From positions 1 through 42,111 of IMG/VR virus record IMGVR_UViG_3300032074_000012: a stretch of DNA of 42,111 bases; one strand, written 5' to 3'. The notes below the pieces were generated by a model. The model made no database searches and had not been told where the DNA came from. It was given only the letters and a program-made list of their open reading frames with translations. The translations under genes were made by a program, and so were the position numbers. Of the stretch, positions 1-25,752 are shown piece after piece. The DNA comes from a virus (taxonomy: Duplodnaviria; Caudoviricetes). Each line of letters opens with the position of its first letter. Within the stretch, counting starts at the first letter, position 1.

Positions 1-120
1 CAGTCGTCGCTGAGGGCTTTGCCGTAGGGGCCTTCTGTTTCGCGGTTTTGTCGGTTTTTGAGCGCACGATTAATTGCCTCTCTTTCTTGGTTTTCCCACC
101 AGACGGGACTTTCCCGTTCT
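1..120. repeat. Direct terminal repeat, left copy (probable circular-assembly overlap)
   Basis: Bases 1-120 are identical to 41992-42111 and fall inside coding sequence. Confidence 0.95.
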
Positions 121-1493
121 GGCTCCGCAATTGGATGTTTTCCGGTCCAATGGTAACTAAATCGGTGGAGGTATAAAGCCGCATCACCTTCGTCACTATG
201 TATCGGAAGCCCTGTTTTAGGGTCTTTTATGCTTTTAGCCCAAGCGGTGGCAACAATAGAATCCGGCTCCGCTTTAATGCGCCCTAGCAAAAAATCCGAA
301 TTCATCTGCTCTACGGCGCCGAGCTTGTATTTGGGGCTCTTGTCGACCGCCTGCCAATTGAAGCCGTATCGCATGTTTATGTCGTCTACGATCATAACGC
401 CCAAACCACCCGTATCTACGACCGTTCCGACAAATCCGTACCTGCGGTCCATCTCCTTCCATTTTTCGCAGATGGTCTGGATATACATGCCTCTTTGCGC
501 GTGGGGCTGCATATAGTAAAGGTTCTCGTCTTGGTAGGAAAACGCTCCGGGCTGAATAACCGTCTTATCCCGCTTACCTAAGTCGATGGCGCATATATGC
601 TGGTACTCTAGACGCGGATTGAAAGAACCGTCCCAATAGTTCCGAACCGGGTCATAGTAGTAGGCTTTCTCAGAATCCTCGGCTACCCATTCGGCCAGCT
701 GCTCCCGGCGAAACTTGGGCGAATCCTTCGTAAGTCCGAAAGGCTTGTAGGTTGTCTCAAAAACCTTATCAAGATCCCTTTCCTCGGGCCGCAAGAAACT
801 ATTGTCGCTTTTGATCCATTTGGCTACTTTCCATCCTTCGGGCTGCTCGATACAGACTTTATAGAATAGCCCTTGAAATACAGAGCCGGGAGTTCCGGAC
901 AAAACGAGCGTTCCGCCGTAGTCTCCAAGTCCCGGCAGGATTGCTTCGACAATAAGCTCTTCAAAGTGAGGCCCGAAATCCTTACACTCATCAAGTAAAG
1001 CGAGAGAATAAGCACCGCCACGCAAACGGGTAGGAGAATCAGCGTCGTGAGCGCCCAATAGCAATATCTGAGTTCCCCTGGGCGTAATAACACGTTTCTC
1101 GACCTCCTTGAATAATAGCCCCAAATTGAGCTTTGAGTTCAATTCTTTGAGGGGCAGCCAAAAGAGATCCTTTGCGTGGGCTTTCGAATCCGGCACGATA
1201 TAAACGATAGTGCTGCCCGGAAACTTCAAATCGTGCAACATACACTCAAACAGGTTGTATGTAGTCTTTCCGGTTCGCCGGGGGCAACAGACCGCTTTGA
1301 AGCGCGCATCCGCTAAAAGCATCTCCTTCTGCTTGTCGTGGGCTTTCTGGAGATATACGTTAAGATCGTGTTCTTTGACCTCTTGGCGGGTTCGGTCGAA
1401 TAGAACCTTTCCGCTGCGCGCGAGGCGTTTGTTCCGTTCCGCTATAACGGCCTTCGCCGTTATAGCATCGTTAATTTGATTTATTTTTCTCAT
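1..1493 (-). CDS. terL: Terminase large subunit, about 497 aa (not in ORF track)
   Basis: Manual translation from ATG 1493 (MRKINQIND...) gives Walker A CPRRTGKTT, LRGGAYSLALLDE (Walker B), LSGTPG (motif III), nuclease CAIDLGKRD and HSDEGDAALY. The TGA stop spans the circle junction (tca at 41991-41993). Confidence 0.93.
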   Translation of the reverse strand, partial: MRKINQINDAITAKAVIAERNKRLARSGKVLFDRTRQEVKEHDLNVYLQKAHDKQKEMLLADARFKAVCCPRRTGKTTYNLFECMLHDLKFPGSTIVYIVPDSKAHAKDLFWLPLKELNSKLNLGLLFKEVEKRVITPRGTQILLLGAHDADSPTRLRGGAYSLALLDECKDFGPHFEELIVEAILPGLGDYGGTLVLSGTPGSVFQGLFYKVCIEQPEGWKVAKWIKSDNSFLRPEERDLDKVFETTYKPFGLTKDSPKFRREQLAEWVAEDSEKAYYYDPVRNYWDGSFNPRLEYQHICAIDLGKRDKTVIQPGAFSYQDENLYYMQPHAQRGMYIQTICEKWKEMDRRYGFVGTVVDTGGLGVMIVDDINMRYGFNWQAVDKSPKYKLGAVEQMNSDFLLGRIKAEPDSIVATAWAKSIKDPKTGLPIHSDEGDAALYLHRFSYHWTGKHPIAEPERESPVWWENQEREAINRALKNRQNRETEGPYGKALSDD

Positions 1494-1763
1494 TTACTTT
1501 TTAATCGGAGAATTTAAATGTGGATTTTCTTTTTTGTTTTTAATCTCGGGAGCCAAACTTATATACCGGATATTTCCGTGCGGTATGATAATACGCTCTC
1601 CGTTACGGTAGGTGAGACGGACACAATTCCCGGATTCCTCCATAAGTACCGCGATAGACTTATCCGTAAAGGGTAGATGCGTTTTAGCTGGTGTGACCAG
1701 AATCGTGTTGGTGTAGCCGGCATCGGGAGTTCTGACAGTTTCCTTACATTCGACCGTAATCAT
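1494..1763 (-). CDS. Hypothetical protein, 89 aa
   Basis: ATG 1763 overlaps the GNAT stop (TAATG), and its TAA abuts the terL ATG. Confidence 0.7.
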   Translation of the reverse strand: MITVECKETVRTPDAGYTNTILVTPAKTHLPFTDKSIAVLMEESGNCVRLTYRNGERIIIPHGNIRYISLAPEIKNKKENPHLNSPIKK

Positions 1764-2242
1764 TAGTCGGCTCCTAGCATGAGATAATACTCGTCGTGCT
1801 CGATTAAATAGCGCTGGGATACGGAATTGCAAACCCGGTTCCAATGGCTCGCCACAACACCCATTCCAGCTGACCATCCTAAAGCCGCCACAATGGCTTT
1901 TGCGATCCCGCGCTCCCTATAGGGCTGTTTCACGTAAATGTAGTCAACGAGTATCCTTCCGTCGTCTAGCATCTGACCGCATGCAAAACCGACAATCCAC
2001 TCCGGAGCGTCCGCATCGCAGCCAATGATCATACTGCGCCGTTCGCCTAAAGCTGCGATTAATCTTTGGTGCCCGGTGAAATATACGGGATTCTTCATTG
2101 TCCGCTTTGTGTCGCGGTACGACTTCATCCACGAGGAAAGGACGAAATTGAAGTCTTCGGCTTTTACGGCCCTGAACGTTAAAGAAAAAGGAATCTCGGG
2201 ATCGCGTTCGGATTCCGGAGAAACGGTAGCTGTTTCACTCAT
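1763..2242 (-). CDS. GNAT-family acetyltransferase
   Basis: IVGFACG...YIYVKQPYRERGIAKAIV matches GNAT acetyl-CoA binding motif A. Confidence 0.8.
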   Translation of the reverse strand: MSETATVSPESERDPEIPFSLTFRAVKAEDFNFVLSSWMKSYRDTKRTMKNPVYFTGHQRLIAALGERRSMIIGCDADAPEWIVGFACGQMLDDGRILVDYIYVKQPYRERGIAKAIVAALGWSAGMGVVASHWNRVCNSVSQRYLIEHDEYYLMLGAD

Positions 2243-2325: not shown

Positions 2326-2354
2326 TACTTTGCGGCTTTGGCGAGACGCAAAGG

Positions 2355-2387
2355 CTCCGGATGGCATAAGGCTGTCCGGAGTTTTTT
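2355..2387 (+). terminator. Leader terminator or attenuator hairpin
   Basis: CTCCGGATGGC-ATAAG-GCTGTCCGGAG followed by T6, lying upstream of the SD at about 2395. Confidence 0.6.
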
Positions 2388-2406
2388 CTCGTCTGGAGTT
2401 GAACCT

Positions 2407-3270
2407 ATGTCCAAATCCAAGAAAATGATCAAGTTCTTCCTAAAAGAGCTTGAAGACTTCATCGAGCGACTTGAGGCCCATATTGTTGCTTCTGCGCCTG
2501 CGAAGGTGGAGCATCAATCGGAGCATCAATCGGAGCAACCTGCTCCAGCTGAGCAAAACACCCAAACCGAAGAGGAAATCCCAATGCTGATCAAATCCAC
2601 CGATGGTATCGGTCCCGATATCGAAACGTCCGATACGCCCAATCCCGGGCTGACCGCTGAGAAGAACGACGGAAGGGCTGTTGATCAAAGCGACGCTGTA
2701 GACACCAATAAGATCAACCTGCCTACCCCAATCGGAGCCCTAGCTCCTTTGAGCGTAAACGGCCCGATCCAAGACGGCTCCGACATGGCTGAAGATAAGC
2801 CCGTGGGCGATTCGTCCCCGATGGAAACGGAGCAAGACGAGCCTTCCACGGAGCACCAGGATATTGACCTCGGAGACGCCCCTGCTGCTGAGCCGCTGCC
2901 TGTAGACGAAAATGCTACCCCGAAGGCTAACACGAAGGTTACCTCGACTTTCGAGCCGATTGATCTGAAAGCCGATTCGCCCGCCATCTCCCCGCTTCAG
3001 CCCGATCCTGAGGCTTTGTCCCTTCCCGTGCTAGATATCGAGAAGAAGGACGATTCGTCGGATTCTTCTGATTCGGCTGCTCCAGCGGATTCTGCCGATT
3101 CTGAGGAAACCGAGTCGGGTGCGCAAACCGAGTCGGATGTTGAACTTGCTGCGAAGGTGGAGCCAACGGCTGATTTTGCTGTAGCTGACGAATCCGTTGA
3201 GGCTCCGGTTGAAGCTGAAGCTGAAGCTGAAGAGCCGGTTGCTCCTGAAGAGACGAAAGACAAGGAGTAA
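2407..3270 (+). CDS. Acidic Pro/Ala/Ser-rich disordered protein, 287 aa (moron)
   Basis: GGAG SD before ATG 2407; short N-terminal helix then low-complexity D/E/P/A/S sequence; has its own promoter and terminator. Confidence 0.8.
   Translation: MSKSKKMIKFFLKELEDFIERLEAHIVASAPAKVEHQSEHQSEQPAPAEQNTQTEEEIPMLIKSTDGIGPDIETSDTPNPGLTAEKNDGRAVDQSDAVDTNKINLPTPIGALAPLSVNGPIQDGSDMAEDKPVGDSSPMETEQDEPSTEHQDIDLGDAPAAEPLPVDENATPKANTKVTSTFEPIDLKADSPAISPLQPDPEALSLPVLDIEKKDDSSDSSDSAAPADSADSEETESGAQTESDVELAAKVEPTADFAVADESVEAPVEAEAEAEEPVAPEETKDKE
2508..2538 (+). repeat. 12-bp tandem repeat GGAGCATCAATC (about 2.5 copies)
   Basis: Encodes EHQS EHQS EQ. Confidence 0.8.
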
Positions 3271-6895: not shown

Positions 6896-7300
6896 TCAAT
6901 AAAATATGATTATTTGGCCGTCGCTAGTTTCAGTATAGTTTGAGCCGGAGAGGGAATCTTGGGCGAAACCCTCAAAGTCCACGTAAGAGCGGATATACAT
7001 TGGAACCTCAGGCTCAAGGTTCTCTACAAGATATCTGCCGTATTCCTCCCCATCCTCATGAAGCGAATATCCGCCATCTTTAATGATATTCCCTACGGTT
7101 TCAAGAATATCTGAATCTCCGGCATAATACTCCAAAATTGCGTCAACGACGTTTTCGTCAACCTTTCCAACCTTCTCAACAAATTCCCGGAGATTATTCA
7201 GTTCTTTTGCACCATCTGAACCTTCAAAGTCTTCCGCTTTAGCTTCCAAAGCTTCCAATTCCTCGATGCGCTCGTTAATGTTATACATGTCATAAATCAT
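6896..7300 (-). CDS. ardA: ArdA-like antirestriction (DNA-mimic) protein
   Basis: Very acidic; C-terminal EYGRYLVE...EVPMYIRSYVDFEGFAQD fits the ArdA IP..L..YIDYE..ARD pattern; AGGAG SD before ATG 7300. Confidence 0.7.
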   Translation of the reverse strand: MIYDMYNINERIEELEALEAKAEDFEGSDGAKELNNLREFVEKVGKVDENVVDAILEYYAGDSDILETVGNIIKDGGYSLHEDGEEYGRYLVENLEPEVPMYIRSYVDFEGFAQDSLSGSNYTETSDGQIIIFY

Positions 7301-7416
7301 TTTTTTGCTCCTAAGACGCAAATTGCGCCCAAAATTGTTAAGAATCCTAGAATGGGCAAGACTACCGAAAGCGATATCAAACCCTCAAAAAATAGCATCA
7401 TAATCAAGCCGGTCAT
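7297..7416 (-). CDS. 39-aa hydrophobic membrane peptide (not in ORF track)
   Basis: MTGLIMMLFFEGLISLSVVLPILGFLTILGAICVLGAKK; AGGA SD; ATGA overlap with the ArdA-like gene. Confidence 0.65.
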   Translation of the reverse strand: MTGLIMMLFFEGLISLSVVLPILGFLTILGAICVLGAKK

Positions 7417-8493: not shown

Positions 8494-9015
8494 ATGAAAC
8501 CGACCGAGTTCCACAAAACCTACCACCGCCGCGTTCGCTCCTATGCTCACTTAATGGCCAAGAAATGGGGCCTACCCGCCCATATTGCTCAAGACCTAGA
8601 ACAAGCCTGTTGGCTGGGGATTATCGAAGCTTTGCCCTATTGGAAGGCGTCCGACGGTACAAGAGCCCATAAGTCCGCTTTCAATTGGTGCGCTCCCGTT
8701 ATGTGCCGCGAGATGGAAAAAGTGATTCGAACACATCACGGTATGCGCCCTTTAAGTAGCGGCAAAATTGAGGCCCTGACGGACTCTGAAGACTTTTCAA
8801 CATTCCAGGGCCGTTCTATGGATGTTGAGTCCGCTATAGATTTGAAGCAAGCTCTACAGAACGATCCGAAACCGATCCATGTGGCACGGTTTGTGCTTAC
8901 AGCCATCAATCCGAATGAACAGGCCGCAGTCGCTGTAAACAACCGCGTCTCTAGGCAAGCGATCTGTATGTCTGTGAGGCGCACAAGGGAGCGGTTGCGT
9001 CTCGCTTTGGGATAA
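8494..9015 (+). CDS. Phage sigma70-family factor (sigma2 plus sigma4 only)
   Basis: QDLEQACWLGIIEALPYWKASDG...AFNWC matches region 2 (DLxQ...GL.EA); C-terminal HTH VSRQAICMSVRRTRERLR matches region 4. Confidence 0.75.
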   Translation: MKPTEFHKTYHRRVRSYAHLMAKKWGLPAHIAQDLEQACWLGIIEALPYWKASDGTRAHKSAFNWCAPVMCREMEKVIRTHHGMRPLSSGKIEALTDSEDFSTFQGRSMDVESAIDLKQALQNDPKPIHVARFVLTAINPNEQAAVAVNNRVSRQAICMSVRRTRERLRLALG

Positions 9016-9602: not shown

Positions 9603-9779
9603 ACACTATGGCTTTAATCCGGCGCCTCGCTTCGGTCACCGGCTGAAAGCCACTTCGTTCTAACTCCGTTAGCTTGCCATATTTTCACCAATAAAGCAAT
9701 AGCCCTGAGATGTTTTTTCAGATTAACGTCTCAGGGCCCTTTCTTGCCCGTTTTGGCGATATCGCCCACACTGTCAGAC

Positions 9780-10736
9780 ATGCCATCTACAGACGGAAAG
9801 ATCCGTATTCTGGCCATCCATGGCGGCGGGATACGTGGAGCCATACCCGCCAGGATTCTCCAATTCCTCGAGGAAACAACCGGGCAGCCCATTTGGCAGC
9901 TCTTTGATATGGTTTGTGGCGCATCGACAGGTGGGCTACTGGCCGCTGCTTTGACCAAGCCCTACCCCTATTCGGCGGCCCAGGCGGTTCAGCTGTATAA
10001 AAACCGGGGCAAGGAGATTTTCTACCGTTCCCTGTGGCACAGGACTAAAACGCTGAACGGGAAGGTTGGGCCCCGGTATGACGGAAGCGGGCTCGACAGT
10101 GTTTTGAGCGACGTTTTCCAGCTCGATTCGCTGGCATCGACAAAAGTGCCCCTTTTTATGCCCGCCTACGATATTGAGAATCGGAGCGTCGTCTTCTTCA
10201 AAAGCTGGGAAGGCTCCGAAGCGCTCAAGATTAAGCTGTCCGACGTTTGCCGAGCCACCGCAGCCGGACCGACCTATTTTCCCCCTGGCTGTGTAAACGG
10301 CCAATATTTTATAGATGGCGGGACGGTCAATAACAATCCGGCCCTGAGCGGCGTTATTGAAGCTTGCATGAAATATAACGTGCACACCAAAGATGCTCTC
10401 GTTTTATCCTTAGGTACGGGGATTGACGTTAAGCCTATCCTTTATTCGAAAGCGCGCGGCTGGGGCCCGTTAGGTTGGGTCGAGCCTCTTATCTCTGTTT
10501 TTACGGACGGCGTATCCGACTTAACGGATTATCAAATGCGCGATCTTATGCGCGATGCTAACTTCTTTCATTATCAAACAGTGCTCCCTCCTGCTCACGC
10601 CGATATGGACAATGTGGAGGACGGGAACGTGGATTATTTAATACAGGCCGCCGAGAGTGTGATTGACTCAAACAAGGCCGAGTTGCTAAGTTTGTGTGAA
10701 CGTTTGAAAGGGGCCTCTGGTGACGACAAAAGCTGA
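9780..10736 (+). CDS. Patatin-like phospholipase
   Basis: GGGIRG oxyanion loop, GASTG nucleophile elbow, AAGPTYFPP and catalytic IDGG. Confidence 0.93.
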   Translation: MPSTDGKIRILAIHGGGIRGAIPARILQFLEETTGQPIWQLFDMVCGASTGGLLAAALTKPYPYSAAQAVQLYKNRGKEIFYRSLWHRTKTLNGKVGPRYDGSGLDSVLSDVFQLDSLASTKVPLFMPAYDIENRSVVFFKSWEGSEALKIKLSDVCRATAAGPTYFPPGCVNGQYFIDGGTVNNNPALSGVIEACMKYNVHTKDALVLSLGTGIDVKPILYSKARGWGPLGWVEPLISVFTDGVSDLTDYQMRDLMRDANFFHYQTVLPPAHADMDNVEDGNVDYLIQAAESVIDSNKAELLSLCERLKGASGDDKS

Positions 10737-13421: not shown

Positions 13422-13503
13422 ACCGACTTTTTATATCCCTAGGTGGAATATCTCTAGCGTGCCGATTGTTTTCCCTGTAGGTAAAAAACCGAAGGGGTGT
13501 TAC

Positions 13504-14376
13504 ATGAAGCTTTCAAAATTTGTAGAGACTTTTTACGCGGCGTGTCGTGAGAGTAAGAATTCGGCTGGTGAAATGGCGCAAAAGACCATGGCCATGAATA
13601 ATCATCTTTTGCCGTTTTTTGGTGATATGGAGCTAGAATCTATCGGACCTAGCGATATACGCCGTTATAAAAACGATAAGAGCGCCGATGATTTGTCTGC
13701 TAAAACGATCAATAATCATCTTACAGTCTTATCCCGTTGCTTAGCTGTAGCAAGAGAGGAAGGTGTTTTGAAAGCGCCTAAATGGACTGTAAAGCTTATG
13801 AAGGTAGACGCTATGGAATCTCGTTTCTTAGAGAATTCTGAAATAGCCCAGCTTGTTAAGGCGGCTGAAGAAGAAGACAATACTGAATGGAAGCAAATGA
13901 TTTTGATTGGTCTTAATACAGGTATGCGGATTAGTGAGATGCTGGCCCTAGACTGGAAAGATGTAAATTTGAACGGTTCTGTCCGTAAAATTAATGTTTG
14001 CGCATCTGTTTGCCGTGAAACTGGAAAGCTTAAGAAAGTTAAAAATGGGCTGGCAAGAGACGTTGCGCTCAATCCTATGGCCGCTGCTGTATTTAAGGCG
14101 ATGGAGCATAGGGAAGGGCCCGTTTTCAGTATGTCGTATCAAGGCGCATATTCGGCCATGAAACGGATTGTTGAGCGGGCCGGACTACACGATATCGGCT
14201 GGCACAGTCTGAGGCATACCTTCGCATCTGCCCTAGTTACGTCTGGCGTGCCTCTTTTGACTGTTTCGCGTCTGTTAGGCCACAAAAGCCTTAAGATGAC
14301 CGAACGTTATGCGCACCTCTCACAAGAGAAAAACAAGGACGCGGTGGCCGTTTTGGCTTCAGCGATGGGATTCTAA
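13504..14376 (+). CDS. Tyrosine recombinase 1 (Xer-like size, no arm domain)
   Basis: TGMRISE (R), VKNG (K), HSLRH, LGH and TERY (Y) are all present. Confidence 0.95.
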   Translation: MKLSKFVETFYAACRESKNSAGEMAQKTMAMNNHLLPFFGDMELESIGPSDIRRYKNDKSADDLSAKTINNHLTVLSRCLAVAREEGVLKAPKWTVKLMKVDAMESRFLENSEIAQLVKAAEEEDNTEWKQMILIGLNTGMRISEMLALDWKDVNLNGSVRKINVCASVCRETGKLKKVKNGLARDVALNPMAAAVFKAMEHREGPVFSMSYQGAYSAMKRIVERAGLHDIGWHSLRHTFASALVTSGVPLLTVSRLLGHKSLKMTERYAHLSQEKNKDAVAVLASAMGF

Positions 14377-14830: not shown

Positions 14831-15397
14831 ATGAGTAAGAAGAAGATTGTTAAGATGTGGCCTGAGACTATGGAATTGCGCGTTAGAACTGTATTGTCGG
14901 AAATTTGCGAACATGAGGAGTGGATTGATTATAACATCAGTATTTACGTTAATAAGGCGGATGCGAAGGATGCAGCCGATCCCGATAGTGAGCCGATAAT
15001 TAAGGTTGGAACGGCACGAGTATGGCGTTATTTAGGCAAGTACGGATATAACGCTATGGAATCGTTTGATCTGACACAAGATATGTATGATCTATGGTCT
15101 GCCATGATCTCAAAGGATGCTAGAAAAGCTTTCGATTTTTACGACGAGCTAGATTATGATCTTCTTTATGTAGATAGGATCAAAATTGATAACGCGTATA
15201 AAGCTCAGGGATTAGGCACCCTGGCGATTAAGAAGATAGAGGAGTACCTTGGCTCTCAATGCGGTTTAGTGACGGTTATTCCGGACCATGGTAAGAATCT
15301 TGAGAGATTAAAAAAATGGTATAAACGGTTGGGTTATAAGGAAGCTGGCGACACTAATGTATTCTACAAGTCTTTGCGGGATTGGAGCGACGAGTGA
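14831..15397 (+). CDS. GNAT-family acetyltransferase 2
   Basis: YVDRIKIDNAYKAQGLGT (motif A) and LKKWYKRLGY (motif B). Confidence 0.82.
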   Translation: MSKKKIVKMWPETMELRVRTVLSEICEHEEWIDYNISIYVNKADAKDAADPDSEPIIKVGTARVWRYLGKYGYNAMESFDLTQDMYDLWSAMISKDARKAFDFYDELDYDLLYVDRIKIDNAYKAQGLGTLAIKKIEEYLGSQCGLVTVIPDHGKNLERLKKWYKRLGYKEAGDTNVFYKSLRDWSDE

Positions 15398-16503
15398 AAC
15401 CTTATTTCAAGGAAGGCTATAAAACACTTTTTATTAAGTTTATGTATAAAGCGCCAGGCTGGCTAAAGGCTAAGCGTATACAGCTAAACACGCACGAAAC
15501 GAATGAAACGCTGGCTATCCGTAAAGGGGTAAAGTTAAGAGAGGAATACATAGCAAGGCACGAAGCTGGTGCTGGACTTACCCTTTCGGATTTGCAGAGG
15601 TTGGACGAGGAACGTGCAGCTACCGAGGGATATGACGAGAGACACCGAAAAACTGAGATTGGGCCGCATTGGAATAATCTTAAGATTTTCTTCAAAACGC
15701 CTGGCGATGTCTCTTATGAGTCTCTGAAAAAATATGTGATCTTTTGCCGAAATCAAACGAAACCGGACGGAAGCAAAAGATTTAGCGATATGACAATCCG
15801 GCGCCATTGTGCGACGTTACGGAGGGGATTGGCTTGTGCGAGATTAGATGGCCATACCGTGCCAATTATTGCTGACGAAGCGTGGCCGAAATTTAAGAAG
15901 AAAGGGAAGACAAAGGGCAAAAAACAGTCGAGCGGCAATTTTTCCCCTGAGCAAATAAGGGATCTGATTAGCTCGCTTTCCGGCCATGCCTTCGATACGG
16001 CGCTAATTTACGCTTGCACAGGTATGCGGGCAGAAGAAGGAGAAGAGGCTTCTTTTAGACAATTTACCCCGATGGATAATATGCCAGGCTGTGCAGGTAG
16101 ATTCTTAATTATCGGTAAAGAAGACGATGATAGAGAGGTTGGAATACCTGTTACCCTTTTGCCAATTTTGAAGCGGGCTCTACCGTTGAAGGTAGACCAT
16201 AAAAACGTCTTCAAGACGGCGGCTGAAGAAGCGGGTATGGGCACCAAGTTTAACCGTAGGGACTTTAGAGCGGCGTATAACACCACGGTAAGCGAGGAGG
16301 ACCATTATGGTGCCCGCCTTACCATGGGCCATTCAGGGGAAACAAACGACCTGTATCAAAATATCTACGCCGAGCGCCTTGCAAGGCTGGCCCTGTTTGC
16401 GTGGGCCCGGTTAGCCCCGGCTCCAGACCACGAAAACCTGGCTCCTATTGTGGCTAAAAACGGATATTATAGGCGGCGCGTCAAAAAGAAAAAGCCCTTA
16501 TAA
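15394..16503 (+). CDS. int: Tyrosine recombinase 2 (integrase with N-terminal arm-binding-like domain)
   Basis: TGMRAEE, IGK, RRDFR (variant HxxR), MGHS and DLY; attP-like repeats at its 3' end. Confidence 0.85.
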   Translation: MKPYFKEGYKTLFIKFMYKAPGWLKAKRIQLNTHETNETLAIRKGVKLREEYIARHEAGAGLTLSDLQRLDEERAATEGYDERHRKTEIGPHWNNLKIFFKTPGDVSYESLKKYVIFCRNQTKPDGSKRFSDMTIRRHCATLRRGLACARLDGHTVPIIADEAWPKFKKKGKTKGKKQSSGNFSPEQIRDLISSLSGHAFDTALIYACTGMRAEEGEEASFRQFTPMDNMPGCAGRFLIIGKEDDDREVGIPVTLLPILKRALPLKVDHKNVFKTAAEEAGMGTKFNRRDFRAAYNTTVSEEDHYGARLTMGHSGETNDLYQNIYAERLARLALFAWARLAPAPDHENLAPIVAKNGYYRRRVKKKKPL

Positions 16504-16698
16504 TACATCTGTTGGGCTGTTAGAGGCATTATAGATATGTGGCCGTATAGCGACCCCCGGGCTTCGAAGCTGGCGATTATTATAAAATAGCTCCTAGATT
16601 GCTTCTAACAGCTTAGCAGCGCGTCATTTGAGAGCCGGGCACCGCGTCATGGCTCCTACTGGCCCTTTTTCTGGCTCCTATCCTGGCTCTAGCTCCCC
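16418..16698. other. Putative attP with arm-type repeats
   Basis: TGGCTCCTA at 16439, 16650 and 16672, variants at 16588 and 16684, around palindrome GCTTCGAAGC (16561-16570). Confidence 0.6.
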
Positions 16699-16826
16699 CG
16701 AATCATTTTTTGCTTGCCCCAAAAAAACTCCTGATCAATACCTGAAAACTTTTGTAGCAGCCTAGTTTGTTTCGGGCACAATTGCTGTGTCCGCTTAACG
16801 ATATGTTTCAAACTAGGAATAAAACA

Positions 16827-17513
16827 TTGTTTGTTAGATACGCTTTACTTTTACTATGTCTTTTATCCCTCTCTAGCTGTACCGGCATGGACACGGCTTT
16901 ACGTATGTATGGCTATATCCCTCTTACTCCCCCTTCCCGCCTATTAAAGCCCGGAGCTATCATATTTAAGAAGAAGGGCAAAAGATTTGAGGTTGGCATC
17001 ATTTGCACGCCGGAACAGTCTTTAGGCTCAAGATTCCCTGTTTTGGAAAGTGACACCATTCCTACCTTTATAGAGGATACAGTTAATAAAGAGTTTATTT
17101 TAGATGCCGAGGCTTTGGGCAAGGTCACAGGGGGTGCCGGAAGCAACGCGACTAAAAAGATTACAGTTATGCTCAAAAATGCCAAATTGCTCGAAATCAA
17201 TGATTGGATCGTGGCCACCTTTATTAGCGAGAGATCGCCCGCTTGCACCAGGATGATCAAGGATCGGCTGGCTGCGGGGTTTGAGGTAACAATGGTCACC
17301 TCTGCCTTAGTGGCCGATGCGTCCTATAATGTGGAGTGGGCTGACGGCGGACACGTTATGGCTGCGGCCCGACTTTCGACCATTCACGCCCTGTCCGGAC
17401 GAATAAATGGCCTTTCGAAAAATACGAGCCAAAATAAATTTGAGGCCGAAAACATGGTCTGGGGCGTACGTACAGACAATTTCCTGGCTTCCATGAGCCA
17501 CTCGCCAGAATAA
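16827..17513 (+). CDS. Lipoprotein with gasdermin-like mature domain
   Basis: AGGA SD then TTG 16827 (alternative ATG 16803); signal FVRYALLLLCLLSLSS-C; mature motifs follow bacterial gasdermin order (see findings). Confidence 0.7.
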   Translation: MFVRYALLLLCLLSLSSCTGMDTALRMYGYIPLTPPSRLLKPGAIIFKKKGKRFEVGIICTPEQSLGSRFPVLESDTIPTFIEDTVNKEFILDAEALGKVTGGAGSNATKKITVMLKNAKLLEINDWIVATFISERSPACTRMIKDRLAAGFEVTMVTSALVADASYNVEWADGGHVMAAARLSTIHALSGRINGLSKNTSQNKFEAENMVWGVRTDNFLASMSHSPE

Positions 17514-17585
17514 AAAAAACCTATGTCTGCTTGACGGCCACTCGAATTCTGATCAAACCTGGCTCCAACGAAGGGGGGCCACCAA

Positions 17586-18956
17586 ATGGCTGCGCTGAGA
17601 TGGTATCAAAAGAAAGCGGTTGAAATCTTCGGCACCCTGCCGGAGCCACGCCGCTACTTCCTTCCCTGGGATATGGGGGCAGGTAAGACCCTTGGGGCCA
17701 TTTCTATTGCTAAGGCTTACGACCGGCAAAAGGTGCTAATTATTGCTCCCGCCCTGATTCGGGAGAACTGGCGCCGGGAGCTTCAAACCCATTGGCCCGA
17801 GGCCGAACTTGGCATAATCGAATGGGGCCGCAAACGAAAGCTTCCGGAGGATAAAGACGCCGAACGCACGCGAGCCTACAGTGCGCCCGTGCAGGTGGTG
17901 TCCTACGACCTTCTGAAAGAAATCACGCCGCATGGCTGGGATATGATCATTGTGGACGAGTTCCATAATCTTCGTGCTCCGAGGTCTGCGCAGTCCAAAA
18001 ACGTGCTGAAGCTTTTTCAGGCCAATCCGGACGCTTGGGCCCTGGGGCTATCGGGAACACCGATCCCGAACGAAGCCAAGCAACTGTGGAATCCCGTCGA
18101 TATCTTCTTCCCCAACCGCTGGGGTGAGCGAACCGGCGTAGGCAGCGAGGCGTGGAGCTTTCTGTGGAAATACTGCGAGACTGAGCAAAACAGCCATGGC
18201 CGCAGTTTCTTCGGTTTGAAGCAGGACATGCGCGAGCAACTAGAAGCGGCGTTTTCTGAGATCTCGTTTCGGATTGTGCAAAAAGACTTTGCGGAGTTTT
18301 TGCCGCCCCTTTTTGTCGAGCCGCTGTATTTCGACCAAAAGCCCAACCCTATCAAAGCGGCCATGGATTGGTACGAAAGCGTAAAAGACGAATCCGAGCA
18401 CGTCGGCATCTACACGCACCTTCGCCAGACGGCTCGGGATATTACAGCCGCGATCCGTTCAAAGTATAAAGACGTCGAGCCGTTCTTTATTGACGGTAGC
18501 GTGTCAACGCCGGTTAGAAACGAGCTTTTGCTCACGGCAGCCAAGGAGCCGCGCTCTGTGATTGTAGGGACCACCCATGCGCTTAAGGAGGGTATTAGCC
18601 TCTCCTTTCAAAAAACCGCTCTGGTGGTCGAATGGACTACGGCGGTCGATGAGGTGGTGCAATTTATCGCCCGGTTCGCAAGACAGGATTCTAAGAGCCA
18701 GGCTCCTACCCGCGTTCAATTCGTGGTGGGCCCTAACGATGAGAGCCGATGCGATACTTTGCGGGCCCGGATGGATTCGATCAATTCCGTTATCAAAGCC
18801 TCAAAAACCTCTGAGGTTGCAGCCGAGGTCTTTGTTGAGCGAGAGATGACCGAGGATCAGTTTCAGGCAGAATTGAACAGGTTGGTGCAGTCGCAGGAAA
18901 AACGCTCAAATCTTTGGGCCCCTACAGAGGACGACGAGGACGACGACAATGATTAA
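17586..18956 (+). CDS. SNF2/SF2 helicase
   Basis: LRWYQ, DMGAGKT, DEFH, LSGTP, KEGISL and QFIARFAR. Confidence 0.93.
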   Translation: MAALRWYQKKAVEIFGTLPEPRRYFLPWDMGAGKTLGAISIAKAYDRQKVLIIAPALIRENWRRELQTHWPEAELGIIEWGRKRKLPEDKDAERTRAYSAPVQVVSYDLLKEITPHGWDMIIVDEFHNLRAPRSAQSKNVLKLFQANPDAWALGLSGTPIPNEAKQLWNPVDIFFPNRWGERTGVGSEAWSFLWKYCETEQNSHGRSFFGLKQDMREQLEAAFSEISFRIVQKDFAEFLPPLFVEPLYFDQKPNPIKAAMDWYESVKDESEHVGIYTHLRQTARDITAAIRSKYKDVEPFFIDGSVSTPVRNELLLTAAKEPRSVIVGTTHALKEGISLSFQKTALVVEWTTAVDEVVQFIARFARQDSKSQAPTRVQFVVGPNDESRCDTLRARMDSINSVIKASKTSEVAAEVFVEREMTEDQFQAELNRLVQSQEKRSNLWAPTEDDEDDDND

Positions 18957-21867: not shown

Positions 21868-22218
21868 ATGCGAACTTGCGTCCAGTGCAAAGCGGAACTA
21901 ACTCGAAATAACGGCGAAAGTGTCAAACAGTTCTGTGCCCGTAAGTATTGCGACCGAGACTGTGTCATGGCTGCGCGGCGAGAAAGAGCCGAGAGCTTCA
22001 AATATTCTGAAGCACAGGCTGTTCAGCGCAAGGCTGAGGTGATGGGCGGAAACGCCAAGGTTTCCAACGCATTGCTAAATGCCGAAAAAGTTCGAAAGAT
22101 CCGCGAACTGCACCGACCTTTGGGCTTTGACTCAAAAGAGATCAGTGAGCACATGAACGTCAAAGAAGAGTGCATTAAGAAGGTTTTGCGCGGTGTAACG
22201 TGGAGGCACGTAGTTTAA
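21868..22218 (+). CDS. Zn finger plus HTH protein (HNH-endonuclease-like termini without the HNH core)
   Basis: CVQC...YCDRDC and NALLNAEKVRKIRE...RGVTWRHV. Confidence 0.7.
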   Translation: MRTCVQCKAELTRNNGESVKQFCARKYCDRDCVMAARRERAESFKYSEAQAVQRKAEVMGGNAKVSNALLNAEKVRKIRELHRPLGFDSKEISEHMNVKEECIKKVLRGVTWRHVV

Positions 22219-23294
22219 TGCCATTTCATGCTGGTGAAGGTGTCAACGGTTTGGCGGTCATTGTGGATAGCCGCACCAAAAACTGTCAAGAGCTTGACGG
22301 TGTGCTCGATGTGTGGGGTTTGGGCAACCGGGCCCTAGGTAAGCGGGAATGGCGAAAAACCCTACGTATCGCCCTTCGGGATGTGGGCACCGATCCATTC
22401 AGTATGGTCGAGGTAAGGCAGCAAAAAGAGGAGATTGATAAAATCCTCGAAGCGCATAATATCAACACGGTTGTGCTCGTCCAGACGCCTGCCACGCCTG
22501 GTGTGCGTCAGGCCCATTCGGCCTGGAATATGTATGGTCGTGGCGGTTCTCCCTATAAATGGGCAGGTACGGTCTGGAAGGAAAACGGACTGTATCGGGC
22601 CCCAATTCTGAATCCGGTGAATTATGAGTATGTTTACGATTGGCTCCTTTCTAGATGGGTTCAGCAAGCACATGCCGTTGCGGCGGGCAAAATCAAACCG
22701 ATGCCCTGGCCAGAAGCCTGTATCAATCCTGAAGAAAGGGCCCTCGAAATTCTCGAACGACTTGGTAGAGCAAAAGCCTCGCCTATCGCGGTCGATATCG
22801 AATCTAACGTTGCCGGAACCCTTATCACCGCAATCGGCTTCAGTAACGAAAACGGCACGGTCAGCGTCCCCTGGGACGGATACCCCATTGCCGGATCATT
22901 CGGAGAATTGGAGCCCGCCCTCGAGGACTGGCCGCTTGGCAAGGAAATCCGTGAAAGGTGCGTTGAACTCCTGGAATCGGCTCAGCCGAAAATTTTCCAC
23001 AACGGAGCGTACGATACCTTTATGCTCGATAAGCGAGACATCCACGTCAGAAACTTCGCACACGACACCTTGCTCATGCACAGAGTCGTTTACCCTCAAT
23101 ACCGCCACGGCCTCCAAATGGCCTGCGCAACAGAGTTCTGCGTCGAACCTTGGAAATGCTTCTTTAAGCCGCCAAAGGTCGGGGCCGACGAAGATAAGTG
23201 GCTGGGATGCCCAATCGAGTTGCGAAACTATAACTGCCGGGATTCGTACGCAACCTACCAATTGTACCAATCCCTGAAAGGAAAGCTTGGGTGA
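22218..23294 (+). CDS. DNA polymerase A 3'-5' exonuclease subunit with degenerate UDG-like N-terminal domain
   Basis: ExoI VDIES, ExoII FHNGAYD, HDTLLMH and ExoIII YNCRD. Confidence 0.85.
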   Translation: MPFHAGEGVNGLAVIVDSRTKNCQELDGVLDVWGLGNRALGKREWRKTLRIALRDVGTDPFSMVEVRQQKEEIDKILEAHNINTVVLVQTPATPGVRQAHSAWNMYGRGGSPYKWAGTVWKENGLYRAPILNPVNYEYVYDWLLSRWVQQAHAVAAGKIKPMPWPEACINPEERALEILERLGRAKASPIAVDIESNVAGTLITAIGFSNENGTVSVPWDGYPIAGSFGELEPALEDWPLGKEIRERCVELLESAQPKIFHNGAYDTFMLDKRDIHVRNFAHDTLLMHRVVYPQYRHGLQMACATEFCVEPWKCFFKPPKVGADEDKWLGCPIELRNYNCRDSYATYQLYQSLKGKLG

Positions 23295-23480: not shown

Positions 23481-23579
23481 ATGGGCTGTGAGCACGATTG
23501 GGTCGTTGTTGACGAAACTCCCTATGAAGTTGTCCACTGGTGCAAAAAGTGCCGCATAGCTCTGAGGAAGCCTCGATGA
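23481..23579 (+). CDS. 32-aa CxH...CxxC zinc-ribbon peptide (not in ORF track)
   Basis: MGCEHDWVVVDETPYEVVHWCKKCRIALRKPR; AAGGAG SD; ATGA overlap with pol. Confidence 0.65.
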   Translation: MGCEHDWVVVDETPYEVVHWCKKCRIALRKPR

Positions 23580-24919
23580 GCCTAAAGCTGGAATTTCCCG
23601 TTCCCCACGGAAAGCGCCAGTACGATCAATATATGGAGCTTTCCCGCATTGCTGTGCGTATGCAACAGTCCGGATGGAGGGTAGACGTAAAGCGCCTCAA
23701 GGAGCATAAACGTGACGCACAAGAAAGACAGAAGCGACTTGGGGATATCTTTAAGGAGCTAAGCGGAATCGCGGAATTGGGTAAAGACGGGCAGCTTGTC
23801 TCTATTAAAGAATACTTTTGGAAAACCCTCGGCTGCCCCGTTATTTCGGTCGACCGGAAAACCAAGAAGCCCAAGCTCGATGCCGCAGCTTTACTGGCTT
23901 ATGCTTCCGAGTTCGAAGATGAGCGAATCGTCAAAAGCGCCGCAGCTTTATACGGCTATAGGAAAGCAGGTAAAACTATAGGTTTTTGTAACGACTACCT
24001 GCAAAGCGGCGGTCGGATACATCCTACCTATAATGTCACCGGAACGAAGGGTTCCCGCTGGTCTTGCTCCGGCCCGAACATCCAACAGCTTCCTGCCAAA
24101 ATGACAAAGTTCGACTTCGGGGACGGGCCCGAGGTCATTGCAGCAAGTATGAAGGATTGTCTGATTCCGGACGACGGATTCATTTTAGTGGACGCGGATT
24201 GGGCTGCGCTTGAATTATACCTGCAAACCTATATTGCTGGCGCTCGGCATCTGGTGAAGGTTATCGAGGAGGATGGCGACCTCCACATGTATAATGCCCG
24301 AGTTATGTTTGGTGAGAAGGTTGTGCCTAAAGACGCCACAAAGAAGACCCATAAGGTTTTCCGTAACGTTTCGAAGCTTGCCTTCGGTTTTGCATATAAT
24401 GCCAGCGACCACGTAGCACAGGTGCATAAGACCATGAAGGGCTTTATTCCCGGTATCACAGAGCCCATGTGTAAACGGATGCGTAAGGCGTATTTTGAGC
24501 ACCACGCGGAATTTCCCCGCTGGCAGAAAAAAACGAAAGAGAGCGTCGATGGACTCGGTTATGTCGATACCCCTTTACTTGGTAGGCGTTTATATCTTCC
24601 TGCTAGTATGCGCGGTTACAATCAGGCTCTCAATTCACAGTGCCAAATCACTGGCGGGGATCTGGCGAACCTGGCGATTATCGAACTGTATAAAAACTGC
24701 CGTTGGGATCAAGGCGAGCAAATCCGGGCGCAAGTCCACGATTGCTTCGTCATGCAAACAAAACCGGAATGGGTCGAGGAAACGGCGCAGAAGCTAGTGG
24801 ACGCAATGACGAGCCCGGTTGACATTTACGGCCTAACCGCGCGATTTGTGGCCGAACCCGCTTGGGGTTATAATTGGGGGAATATGCAGGATCTCCCCTT
24901 CCAACAGGAGAAAACATGA
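23576..24919 (+). CDS. polA: Family A DNA polymerase, polymerase domain only
   Basis: RIHPTYN, RWSCSGPNIQQLP, motif A DADWAALEL, motif B RNVSKLAFGFAY and motif C QVHDC. Confidence 0.92.
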   Translation: MSLKLEFPVPHGKRQYDQYMELSRIAVRMQQSGWRVDVKRLKEHKRDAQERQKRLGDIFKELSGIAELGKDGQLVSIKEYFWKTLGCPVISVDRKTKKPKLDAAALLAYASEFEDERIVKSAAALYGYRKAGKTIGFCNDYLQSGGRIHPTYNVTGTKGSRWSCSGPNIQQLPAKMTKFDFGDGPEVIAASMKDCLIPDDGFILVDADWAALELYLQTYIAGARHLVKVIEEDGDLHMYNARVMFGEKVVPKDATKKTHKVFRNVSKLAFGFAYNASDHVAQVHKTMKGFIPGITEPMCKRMRKAYFEHHAEFPRWQKKTKESVDGLGYVDTPLLGRRLYLPASMRGYNQALNSQCQITGGDLANLAIIELYKNCRWDQGEQIRAQVHDCFVMQTKPEWVEETAQKLVDAMTSPVDIYGLTARFVAEPAWGYNWGNMQDLPFQQEKT

Positions 24920-25269
24920 AGACCGTCCTTTTGCTCAGCTTTGCTGCTCTTGCCGCCTGTGGAAACAACGGCGCCCCTGGGACCATCGGTGATCCTAATG
25001 GCCCGGTTGCGACCGCTTTGGAGGACTTTACGGATTCCGTCTTTGACCAGGGCAAACCAGCTCTAAACGCCTCAATGGCCGCTTTGCCTCCTGAGACACA
25101 GGCTTTGGTGCAGACGGCCTATGCGGCTCTAGAGGAGGCCATTAAGAAGCTCGGTGGCTCCACCCTGAAGATCCTGACGGTTCAGGACGGTAACCGCCTA
25201 TACGACGAGGAAACGCTAAAAAGGTATCTGGAAGACGTACACGGTCAGTTGGACATTCTGATCCATTGA
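24916..25269 (+). CDS. Lipoprotein, 117 aa
   Basis: AGGAG SD; MKTVLLLSFAALAA-C lipobox. Confidence 0.8.
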   Translation: MKTVLLLSFAALAACGNNGAPGTIGDPNGPVATALEDFTDSVFDQGKPALNASMAALPPETQALVQTAYAALEEAIKKLGGSTLKILTVQDGNRLYDEETLKRYLEDVHGQLDILIH

Positions 25270-25305: not shown

Positions 25306-25752
25306 CTATTTATAAAGCGCTGCCAGACCACTTTTAGCGATCACATCTGTAAGAGGGAAGTTTTCGCCTGGGCAGGTATGGCCGTAGACTAATTTTGAAG
25401 CAACAGCCGTTCCTTTCGTCCCTAGCTGACTGTGCCCACACGCCCACAATTTCCCGCCGTAGCGAGAATTGATCAGTTGCATCAGAAGAACGCAACTCGT
25501 CAGTTGGGCCGCGGTGGGCTTATTATTGAGCCCCGGCTCGAGCGCAGCAAAGTCGCCAAATATGGCGATCGCCACGGTTGAGCCATTATATTCTATTGCG
25601 TGCTCTCCTTTTTCCTCCATCGGCACCAACGGCAAAATGGAGCCGTTCTTCATAATCAAGAAATGATAGTCCGTCCCGGTCCAAACCTCGGCCCTGTGTA
25701 AGACTACGCCGTTTGTTACTCTGCGTTCGATTTGGAAGCCTCCGCAACACAT
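25306..25752 (-). CDS. N-acetylmuramoyl-L-alanine amidase (Amidase_2, T7 lysozyme-like endolysin)
   Basis: VVLH, YHFLI..NG, GEHA..YN, GDF, PTAAQL, GH and CPG zinc-site motifs. Confidence 0.85.
   Translation of the reverse strand: MCCGGFQIERRVTNGVVLHRAEVWTGTDYHFLIMKNGSILPLVPMEEKGEHAIEYNGSTVAIAIFGDFAALEPGLNNKPTAAQLTSCVLLMQLINSRYGGKLWACGHSQLGTKGTAVASKLVYGHTCPGENFPLTDVIAKSGLAALYK

Follow-up and report, generated by a model that had tools for sequence, protein, structure and literature searches.

Bacterial gasdermins (bGSDMs) turn toxic once a C-terminal peptide is removed, and the 2021 preprint that reports this describes a palmitoylated Cys3/4 and an adjacent protease for 43 of 50 bGSDMs (10.1101/2021.06.07.447441). 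Gasdermins have been described as acting from inside cells, with the pyroptolysins as a recent exception (10.64898/2026.10.05.756811); the main text of the latter preprint contains neither the word lipoprotein nor the word phage. No paper on lipoprotein or bacteriophage gasdermins, and no earlier bacteriophage-encoded gasdermin-fold protein, was found in a literature search. Within the scope of those sources the family described here is apparently unreported, though some of its members could be among the bGSDMs tabulated in the supplement of the 2021 preprint.

The window, as the whole stretch of 42,111 nucleotides analyzed here is called, corresponds to one complete virus record of 42.1 kb whose ends are direct terminal repeats (120-base overlap). 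Most of the region is found in two sequencing runs, both soil metagenomes; four runs showed no host junction, and no RNA dataset is among the runs listed as holding the region. The genome encodes an integrase, a helicase, an exonuclease, a Sak4-like annealing protein, a split DNA polymerase, an amidase and head/connector genes, and from this content it looks like a temperate tailed phage. The family A DNA polymerase is divided into an exonuclease-like gene and a polymerase gene (22200-23294 and 23540-24919), as it is in the related phage L001. An ArdA-like antirestriction protein (6896-7321, minus strand), a sigma-70-region-2-like protein (8494-9015, plus strand) and two GNAT-like acetyltransferases (1763-2242, minus strand; 14831-15397, plus strand) are also encoded, as is a very acidic, low-complexity 310-aa ORF (2338-3270, plus strand) that runs against the surrounding leftward genes and matches no family. 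A patatin-like phospholipase (9744-10736, plus strand; Pfam E 1.9e-23) adds a second type of membrane-attacking enzyme. No protease gene was recognized among 53 ORFs in PHROGs and 38 + 7 in Pfam, in agreement with the earlier note on this DNA, with many ORFs matching nothing; a caspase-like FLGHG motif was rejected, being in an antisense frame of a portal-like gene.

The gene under study encodes a predicted lipoprotein with the following features:
16827..17513, plus strand: gene of the predicted gasdermin-fold prolipoprotein, TTG start, 228 aa, AGGA at 16815-16818
16827..16877, plus strand: 17-aa signal peptide ending in the lipobox LSS, predicted SPase II type by pattern heuristic
16878..16880, plus strand: Cys +1 (Cys18), predicted diacylglyceryl anchor, positionally beside the palmitoylated Cys3/4 of bGSDMs
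17004..17006, plus strand: Cys43 of the mature chain, invariant (150/150 listed rows)
17244..17246, plus strand: Cys123 of the mature chain, invariant (150/150 listed rows)
17052..17180, plus strand: predicted membrane-inserting hairpin 1, mature residues 59-101, alternating hydrophobic pattern
17325..17453, plus strand: predicted membrane-inserting hairpin 2, mature residues 150-192, alternating hydrophobic pattern
17466..17510, plus strand: 15-residue stub past the last core Gly, without the 35-60-residue tail of most relatives

The ORF contains everything that had first been read from it: the signal peptide, the LSS-C lipobox and its Cys codon, the mature chain of 211 aa, four motifs in order, and a short C-terminus of 14 residues past VWGV. 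By pattern heuristics the leader is that of a lipoprotein, with a basic residue, a hydrophobic stretch and the lipobox Cys. The AGGA lies 8 nt upstream of the TTG start, and in L001 an in-frame stop two codons before the equivalent TTG excludes longer in-frame starts in that phage and supports the TTG. Close relatives of the 228-aa protein fall in five other clusters at 64-82% identity. When the 211 mature codons are compared with those of L001, 109 are the same, 59 carry synonymous differences and 43 encode another residue; so far as codon comparison tells, purifying selection is evident and the gene is real. Thr at +2 would direct outer-membrane sorting by the E. coli rule, which may not be the rule of this host; the residue varies over the 111 listed rows (P 22, S 16, T 14, G 13, R 10, N 8, A 6, D 5, K 5 and others). 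Cys43 and Cys123 are completely conserved, as the two halves of a disulfide would be if the protein is exported, and such a bond is likely.

Single-sequence searches gave no Pfam or PDB-sequence match for either the protein or the family profile (the Pfam set used was without PF26164, Bact_GSDM). BFVD yielded no match at E<=0.001, none of 50,697 cultured-phage records matched, and viral profile scans with the family alignments A8, A9 and A12 were equally empty. The AlphaFold2 model, built from a 150-row alignment, has a pLDDT of 88.1 and a pTM of 0.85, with lower pLDDT (71-80) at residues 61-90, within hairpin 1. Foldseek gave seven matches at E<=0.001, every one a gasdermin; the best is Vitiosangium bGSDM 7n51 (E 9.7e-8, TM 0.53), onto which VIA-align placed 184 residues with Z 10.7 and a high rmsd of 5.8 A. 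A separate fold search over 48,161 chains likewise put gasdermins in all of its top 13 rows, and CsgG is absent among the 50 rows listed for it. With VIA-align, CDCL, CDC and MACPF entries reach Z <=6.0, below 25 gasdermin entries (gasdermins about 9-11). The gasdermin fold guessed from the sequence is thus borne out by the model and by the structural comparisons. Model residues 1..211 align to 5..225 of 7n51, 4..232 of 7n52 and 3..223 of 7n50, and all 211 mature residues lie inside the gasdermin domain, with the C-terminal CDC-like Ig domain of pyroptolysins absent. At the head of the model, the lipobox Cys (residue 1) falls on chain residues 3-5 of the three bGSDMs, in the position of the palmitoylated Cys, as the earlier note had supposed.

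Profile searches place the protein at a greater distance. The NCBIfam model NF051890 (prok_gasdermin) scores it at 13.8 bits against a curated cut-off of 100 bits; the same HMM matches six of six close members (best E 6e-5) and 15 of 149 listed relatives at E<=0.01 (best 25.7 bits), and the PADLOC bGSDM HMM matches five of the six (best E 6e-4). Taken with the structural model, the window protein is a member of the gasdermin structural superfamily and, with four bGSDM tests negative, not a canonical bGSDM; the likely exported family to which it belongs has been overlooked by current gasdermin HMMs. Hydrophobicity alternates in all four finger strands, with a pooled p of 0.003 for the window protein and p<0.05 in 146 of 149 listed relatives (control regions, 4/149), p-values that are inflated because the finger boundaries were set by eye from the same alignment. 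We consider it probable that this gasdermin-fold protein, as modelled, is both exported and pore-forming.

The larger result is the likely exported gasdermin family that stands behind the window protein. Against 1.84 billion representatives, phmmer matched 301 clusters at E<=0.001, of which 189 also pass 1e-10; in alignment A3 the window protein is joined by 149 relatives taken from the best 150 of the 301 clusters, with P0100 and P0153-P0158 left out. Pattern heuristics assign the leaders of the 149 listed relatives to a lipobox in 87 cases and an N-terminal membrane anchor in 21, with 23 unclassified and 18 truncated N-terminally. A Cys occupies the lipobox-Cys column in 111 of 150 listed rows, and the N-terminal motif G-Y/F-x-x-L-x-PP-x-x-L-x-PG is common to the family and the bGSDMs. 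From these leaders, family members are likely exported. In the ESM Atlas the nearest neighbors are unnamed bacterial clusters (0.96-0.97), and among named clusters Trypco2 comes closest (0.85), followed by one that is 13% Bact_GSDM (0.84). On the cellular side the family is represented by, among others, records of Collimonas fungivorans, Rhizobium, Chondrinema, Dongiaceae and Rhodospirillales, and in genome samples the family occurs in 2/301, 2/401 and 2/127, each count including the seed genome.

Most of the family carries a C-terminal extension that the window protein does not have. The length past the last core Gly has a median of 59 residues; it is <=15 in seven and <=25 in ten of 149 listed relatives, and in 139 of the 149 more than 25 residues follow the last core strand. 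In the model of the tailed relative P0024, residues 221-250 have a pLDDT of 93-96, and its residues 22..254 align to 6..266 of 7n51 (Z 11.1, rmsd 6.2 A, 202 aligned), reaching the end of that chain; P0024 also aligns to the end of 7n50 (to 258). In these models the P0024 tail lies over the inhibitory peptide of the bGSDMs. The window model ends at residue 225 (of 266) of 7n51 and at residue 223 of 7n50, so the missing inhibitory tail noticed at the outset is real in structural terms. A tail motif is weakly enriched (54/138 against 35 expected), and it is the P0024 model that carries the argument for the tail. A hidden tail reached by frameshift or read-through was rejected, since the -1-frame tail-like stretch runs into a stop in L001.

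The window protein and eight relatives with stubs of 13-18 residues form one clade (FastTree support 0.966), and IQ-TREE, run without support values, returned the same topology. Because this clade is nested among tailed members, tail loss is likely the derived state. Short members also arose separately, namely P0044, Collimonas P0093 and two Rhizobium plasmid proteins (5 residues past the aligned core). The window chain is ~8 residues shorter than the stretch of P0024 that is aligned in pore structures (to 233), and it may therefore lack a strand needed in the active form.

The short C-terminus bears on two alternatives to a killing pore. The protein could be a stable envelope channel or scaffold, with a CsgG-like role, or a receptor-masking lipoprotein, the disulfide fixing its resting state. 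Its invariant Cys pair and a C-terminus shorter than the active bGSDM fragment are consistent with this, the protease, lysozyme and TPR fusions described below could be scaffold passengers, and the pyroptolysins, as reported in their preprint, show that the gasdermin fold need not harm bacteria (10.64898/2026.10.05.756811). Yet both finger hairpins keep the membrane-strand alternation family-wide, and the overlay of the P0024 tail on the inhibitory peptide implies a switch needing restraint, which makes a harmless role unlikely. The least probable alternative is a counter-defence decoy, in which the shortened phage protein co-assembles with a host exported gasdermin and poisons it. Cellular family members do exist, and a poxvirus gasdermin homologue is described as inhibiting pyroptosis (PMC10989679), but cellular members are rare in the sampled genomes, other phages carry fully tailed members and the finger amphipathy is kept.

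Fusions and neighborhoods link the relatives to proteases and lysozymes. Among 150 listed members, 17 are fused to a C-terminal Peptidase_C70 (papain-like protease), one to a GH25 lysozyme and one to TPRs. L008 (5890-7266) and L004 (5890-7239) encode a membrane-anchored gasdermin-like domain joined to Peptidase_C70 in about 450 aa, and such fusions are candidate self-activating gasdermins; a caspase gene lies about 3 kb away from the Chondrinema C70 fusion. The earlier note had suggested that export replaces proteolytic gating. As a general rule for the family this does not hold, because the listed relatives are mostly tailed, the P0024 tail overlays the inhibitory peptide and a protease is fused in 17/150.

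On a Rhizobium lusitanum plasmid (L005 2919-9792) a tail-less lipoprotein member stands directly behind two GH25 lysozyme genes, which are apparently exported. In the second GH25 gene, pattern matching alone points to caspase-like His-Gly and Cys motifs, and the opposite strand carries a caspase gene. No protease or lysozyme neighbor was seen beside the second Rhizobium member or, by eye, beside three divergent genome matches. The Rhizobium cluster, with its exported lysozymes, caspase-like domains and tail-less member, resembles an antibacterial kit and brings up a competitor-killing toxin made by the lysogen and shed in vesicles or delivered by contact. The CDCLs, which are SpII-signal giant-pore toxins reported to open the outer membrane of related bacteria after proteolysis, would be the model for it (PMC11169675). 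In the window, however, no immunity-type gene neighbors the gene and the protein has no receptor-binding domain, a lipid-anchored protein by default faces its own periplasm, as established lipoprotein biology has it, and the phage copies in late operons fit poorly; a toxin aimed at competitors is accordingly improbable.

These phage copies occupy three unrelated positions. Three myophage contigs have a tailed member that is flanked by the baseplate hub and spike genes and runs in their direction:
L015 7983-8765: tailed myophage member
L016 7962-8747: tailed myophage member
L009 3601-4458: tailed myophage member, source of the Pfam labels
The gene order of L009 recurs in L015 and L016, where start and stop codons overlap or abut; with the same-strand baseplate placement, this points to late expression. 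In L018, L022 and L023 the member is on the opposite strand, near genes that were read by eye as terminase subunits. In the window the gene stands beside a likely integration site:
15382..16503, plus strand: divergent tyrosine recombinase, likely the integrase of the att site (features 0.98, TM about 0.6 to PF00589 clusters)
16439..16689, no strand: likely attP, with direct repeats at 16439, 16451, 16650, 16672 and 16684
16714..16739, plus strand: putative promoter-like box TTGCCC-N12-TGATCAAT, conserved in L001
17531..17556, plus strand: putative promoter-like box TTGACG-N13-TGATC before the helicase, conserved in L001
17586..18956, plus strand: helicase, first gene of the replication module, 72 nt downstream of the gasdermin-fold gene

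The recombinase at 15382-16503 has no PHROG or Pfam HMM match and is separated from the gasdermin-fold gene by the intergenic stretch 16504-16826. Five TGGCT(C/A) direct repeats stand in a 2+3 arrangement whose arm-type spacing is conserved in L001, and an imperfect 26-nt inverted repeat (16509-16534/16594-16619) surrounds the att core. The L001 core (2397-2459) is a tRNA fragment (Rfam tRNA 28.3 bits against a 29-bit threshold, E 6.4e-4), its anticodon UCU (Arg) as read by eye. In the window no tRNA was detected and the att core (16541-16575) is degenerate, so the core is placed by position. The attP proposed beside the gene is supported by homology, through the shared repeats and the tRNA core of L001. 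An RNA structure for the att-core hairpin was unconvincing (z -1.95, no Rfam match). The core is tRNA-like in L001 and degenerate in the window, and between the two phages the repeat sequences and the recombinase diverged together, which suggests a switch of integration target. Both phages also have a second tyrosine recombinase in tandem orientation with the first (13459-14376 in the window); an att-like site was seen only for the one at 15382-16503.

A TTGnC-N13-TGATC box precedes both the gasdermin-fold gene and the helicase in both phages. A scan for sigma-70 promoters and terminators found no site in 16300-17700; the claim of a transcription unit of its own is accordingly borne out in part, with the shared promoter-like box for it and neither a terminator between gene and helicase nor a sigma-70 call. 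In a 23-kb contig of another study, 16740-18200 is matched with 24 differences (98% identical), but the sequence left of 16740 is unlike that of the window. The gene thus goes with the replication module and is not strictly part of this att cassette.

The setting beside attP is what recommends a role in lysogen defence, where an envelope lipoprotein triggered by an incoming phage, envelope damage or a second allele would cause abortive death or block entry. The gene is the first beside attP and has the conserved promoter-like box, its homologues in L018 and L022 stand alone on the opposite strand, and its bacterial spread is patchy (one new genome beyond the seed in each of the 301, 401 and 127 sampled). 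There is precedent in the bGSDMs as reported (PMC13475620), and RCD-1 is described as gated by a partner allele and not by cleavage (PMC12881547). Against this, a constitutive tail-less gasdermin would need some brake, no sensor or protease gene was recognized in the window genome, the myophage copies sit in a late operon, and the 98%-identical variant keeps the gene without the att region of the window. We regard defence as rather unlikely, with lysis slightly ahead of it.

Breaching of the host outer membrane at lysis is the role that we tentatively favor, on account of the myophage late-operon copies, the lysozyme partners and the absence of a clear spanin. Export would proceed by Sec with Lgt/LspA processing, as the lipobox and the family-wide export signals indicate, and diacylglyceryl-Cys would replace the self-palmitoyl anchor, its position given by structural alignment and its chemistry presumed. 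A periplasmic Cys43-Cys123 disulfide may stabilize or lock the monomer. Ancestral members would be shut by their C-terminal peptide until, in all likelihood, a protease that is exported or fused to them opens them; the stub clade is without that peptide, so its brake must be something else, for which expression timing or amount, the disulfide and an intact cell wall are candidates. The proposed partner is the endolysin:
25306..25752, minus strand: amidase endolysin, functional partner under the lysis model
Once the amidase strips the wall, the two amphipathic hairpins would insert and open the membrane, so that a beta-barrel pore would form from the periplasm in the envelope of the host itself; as a lipid-anchored gasdermin inserts from the side on which it is anchored, that envelope is the simplest target. 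Such a pore would be a route for breaking the outer membrane independent of spanin-type fusion.

The position of the gene speaks on both sides. In favor of lysis, the gene is kept throughout the phage group and remains linked to the replication module in the variant whose att side differs. On the other side, 8 kb separate it from the endolysin, it belongs to the rightward integration/replication block and not to the late block, and its attP adjacency, its own promoter-like box and the three unrelated phage positions are typical of accessory genes and not of lysis cassettes. No spanin pair is recognizable in the window phage; the lipobox scan missed the family member in L017 and is thus insensitive, which weakens this argument. 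The Rz-like PHROG match of the protein itself is weak (E 0.002), confined to residues 3-45 and largely signal peptide. The one other credible lipoprotein gene found in the window (24916-25269, plus strand) is convergent with the amidase and encodes 117 aa with a lipobox LAA-C and no known family; five clusters at 56-100% identity are apparently confined to the phage group. From its sequence and place it is a candidate for outer-membrane lysis or for a gasdermin partner, and it could fill the job that the spanin-gap argument assigns to the window protein.

Drawn together, these observations would describe a second, envelope-located gasdermin system, in which lipid-anchored gasdermins are held by their peptides, freed by exported or fused proteases and often teamed with lysozymes; phages would have captured it more than once, and the present lineage would have dropped the safety peptide for outer-membrane breakage, a scenario that is doubtful as a whole. 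With its 301 clusters or more, its export signals, its invariant Cys pair and its protease or lysozyme partners, the family would add a third gasdermin compartment, the cell envelope. Its natural tail-less member makes it testable whether bacterial gasdermin gating can occur without proteolysis, and whether spanin-less phages open the outer membrane by a pore.

Spanins fuse two membranes via coiled coils or a second membrane anchor. The window protein resembles them in being a phage lipoprotein whose proposed task, once the endolysin has acted, is to clear the outer-membrane barrier, but it is without a coiled-coil pair or C-terminal membrane anchor and its gene is not beside the endolysin. 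With the CDCL toxins of Bacteroidota, which are described as giant-pore, protease-gated outer-membrane openers, it shares an SpII signal, predicted in its own case, whereas CDCLs have a CDC fold, two components, an immunity lipoprotein and an N-terminal propeptide (PMC11169675, PMC11952106). To the window model the CDC fold reaches Z 5.8 or less. Fungal RCD-1 (8JYX, 8JYY; Z 6.3-7.7 to the window model) likewise comprises gasdermins without cleavage gating, which as reported are cytoplasmic and eukaryotic, unlike the window protein, and are activated when two alleles meet in one cell (PMC12881547). In the pyroptolysins, gasdermin-CDC chimeras, the gasdermin fold is also proposed to work outside the producer cytoplasm, from mostly solitary genes without a protease, but their preprint describes a sterol-binding Ig-like domain, eukaryotic membrane targets and no toxicity in E. 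coli (10.64898/2026.10.05.756811). The bGSDMs of Vitiosangium (7N51), Runella (7N52) and Bradyrhizobium (7N50) share the fold over the whole mature chain and an N-terminal lipid-type Cys, here predicted. The window protein differs from them in a cleavable export signal and a predicted diacylglyceryl anchor in place of cytoplasmic self-palmitoylation, in its invariant Cys pair, in having no inhibitory peptide, in being phage-encoded and in having a recombinase and a helicase, not a protease, as gene neighbors. By analogy, it would act like a pre-activated bGSDM moved to the envelope.
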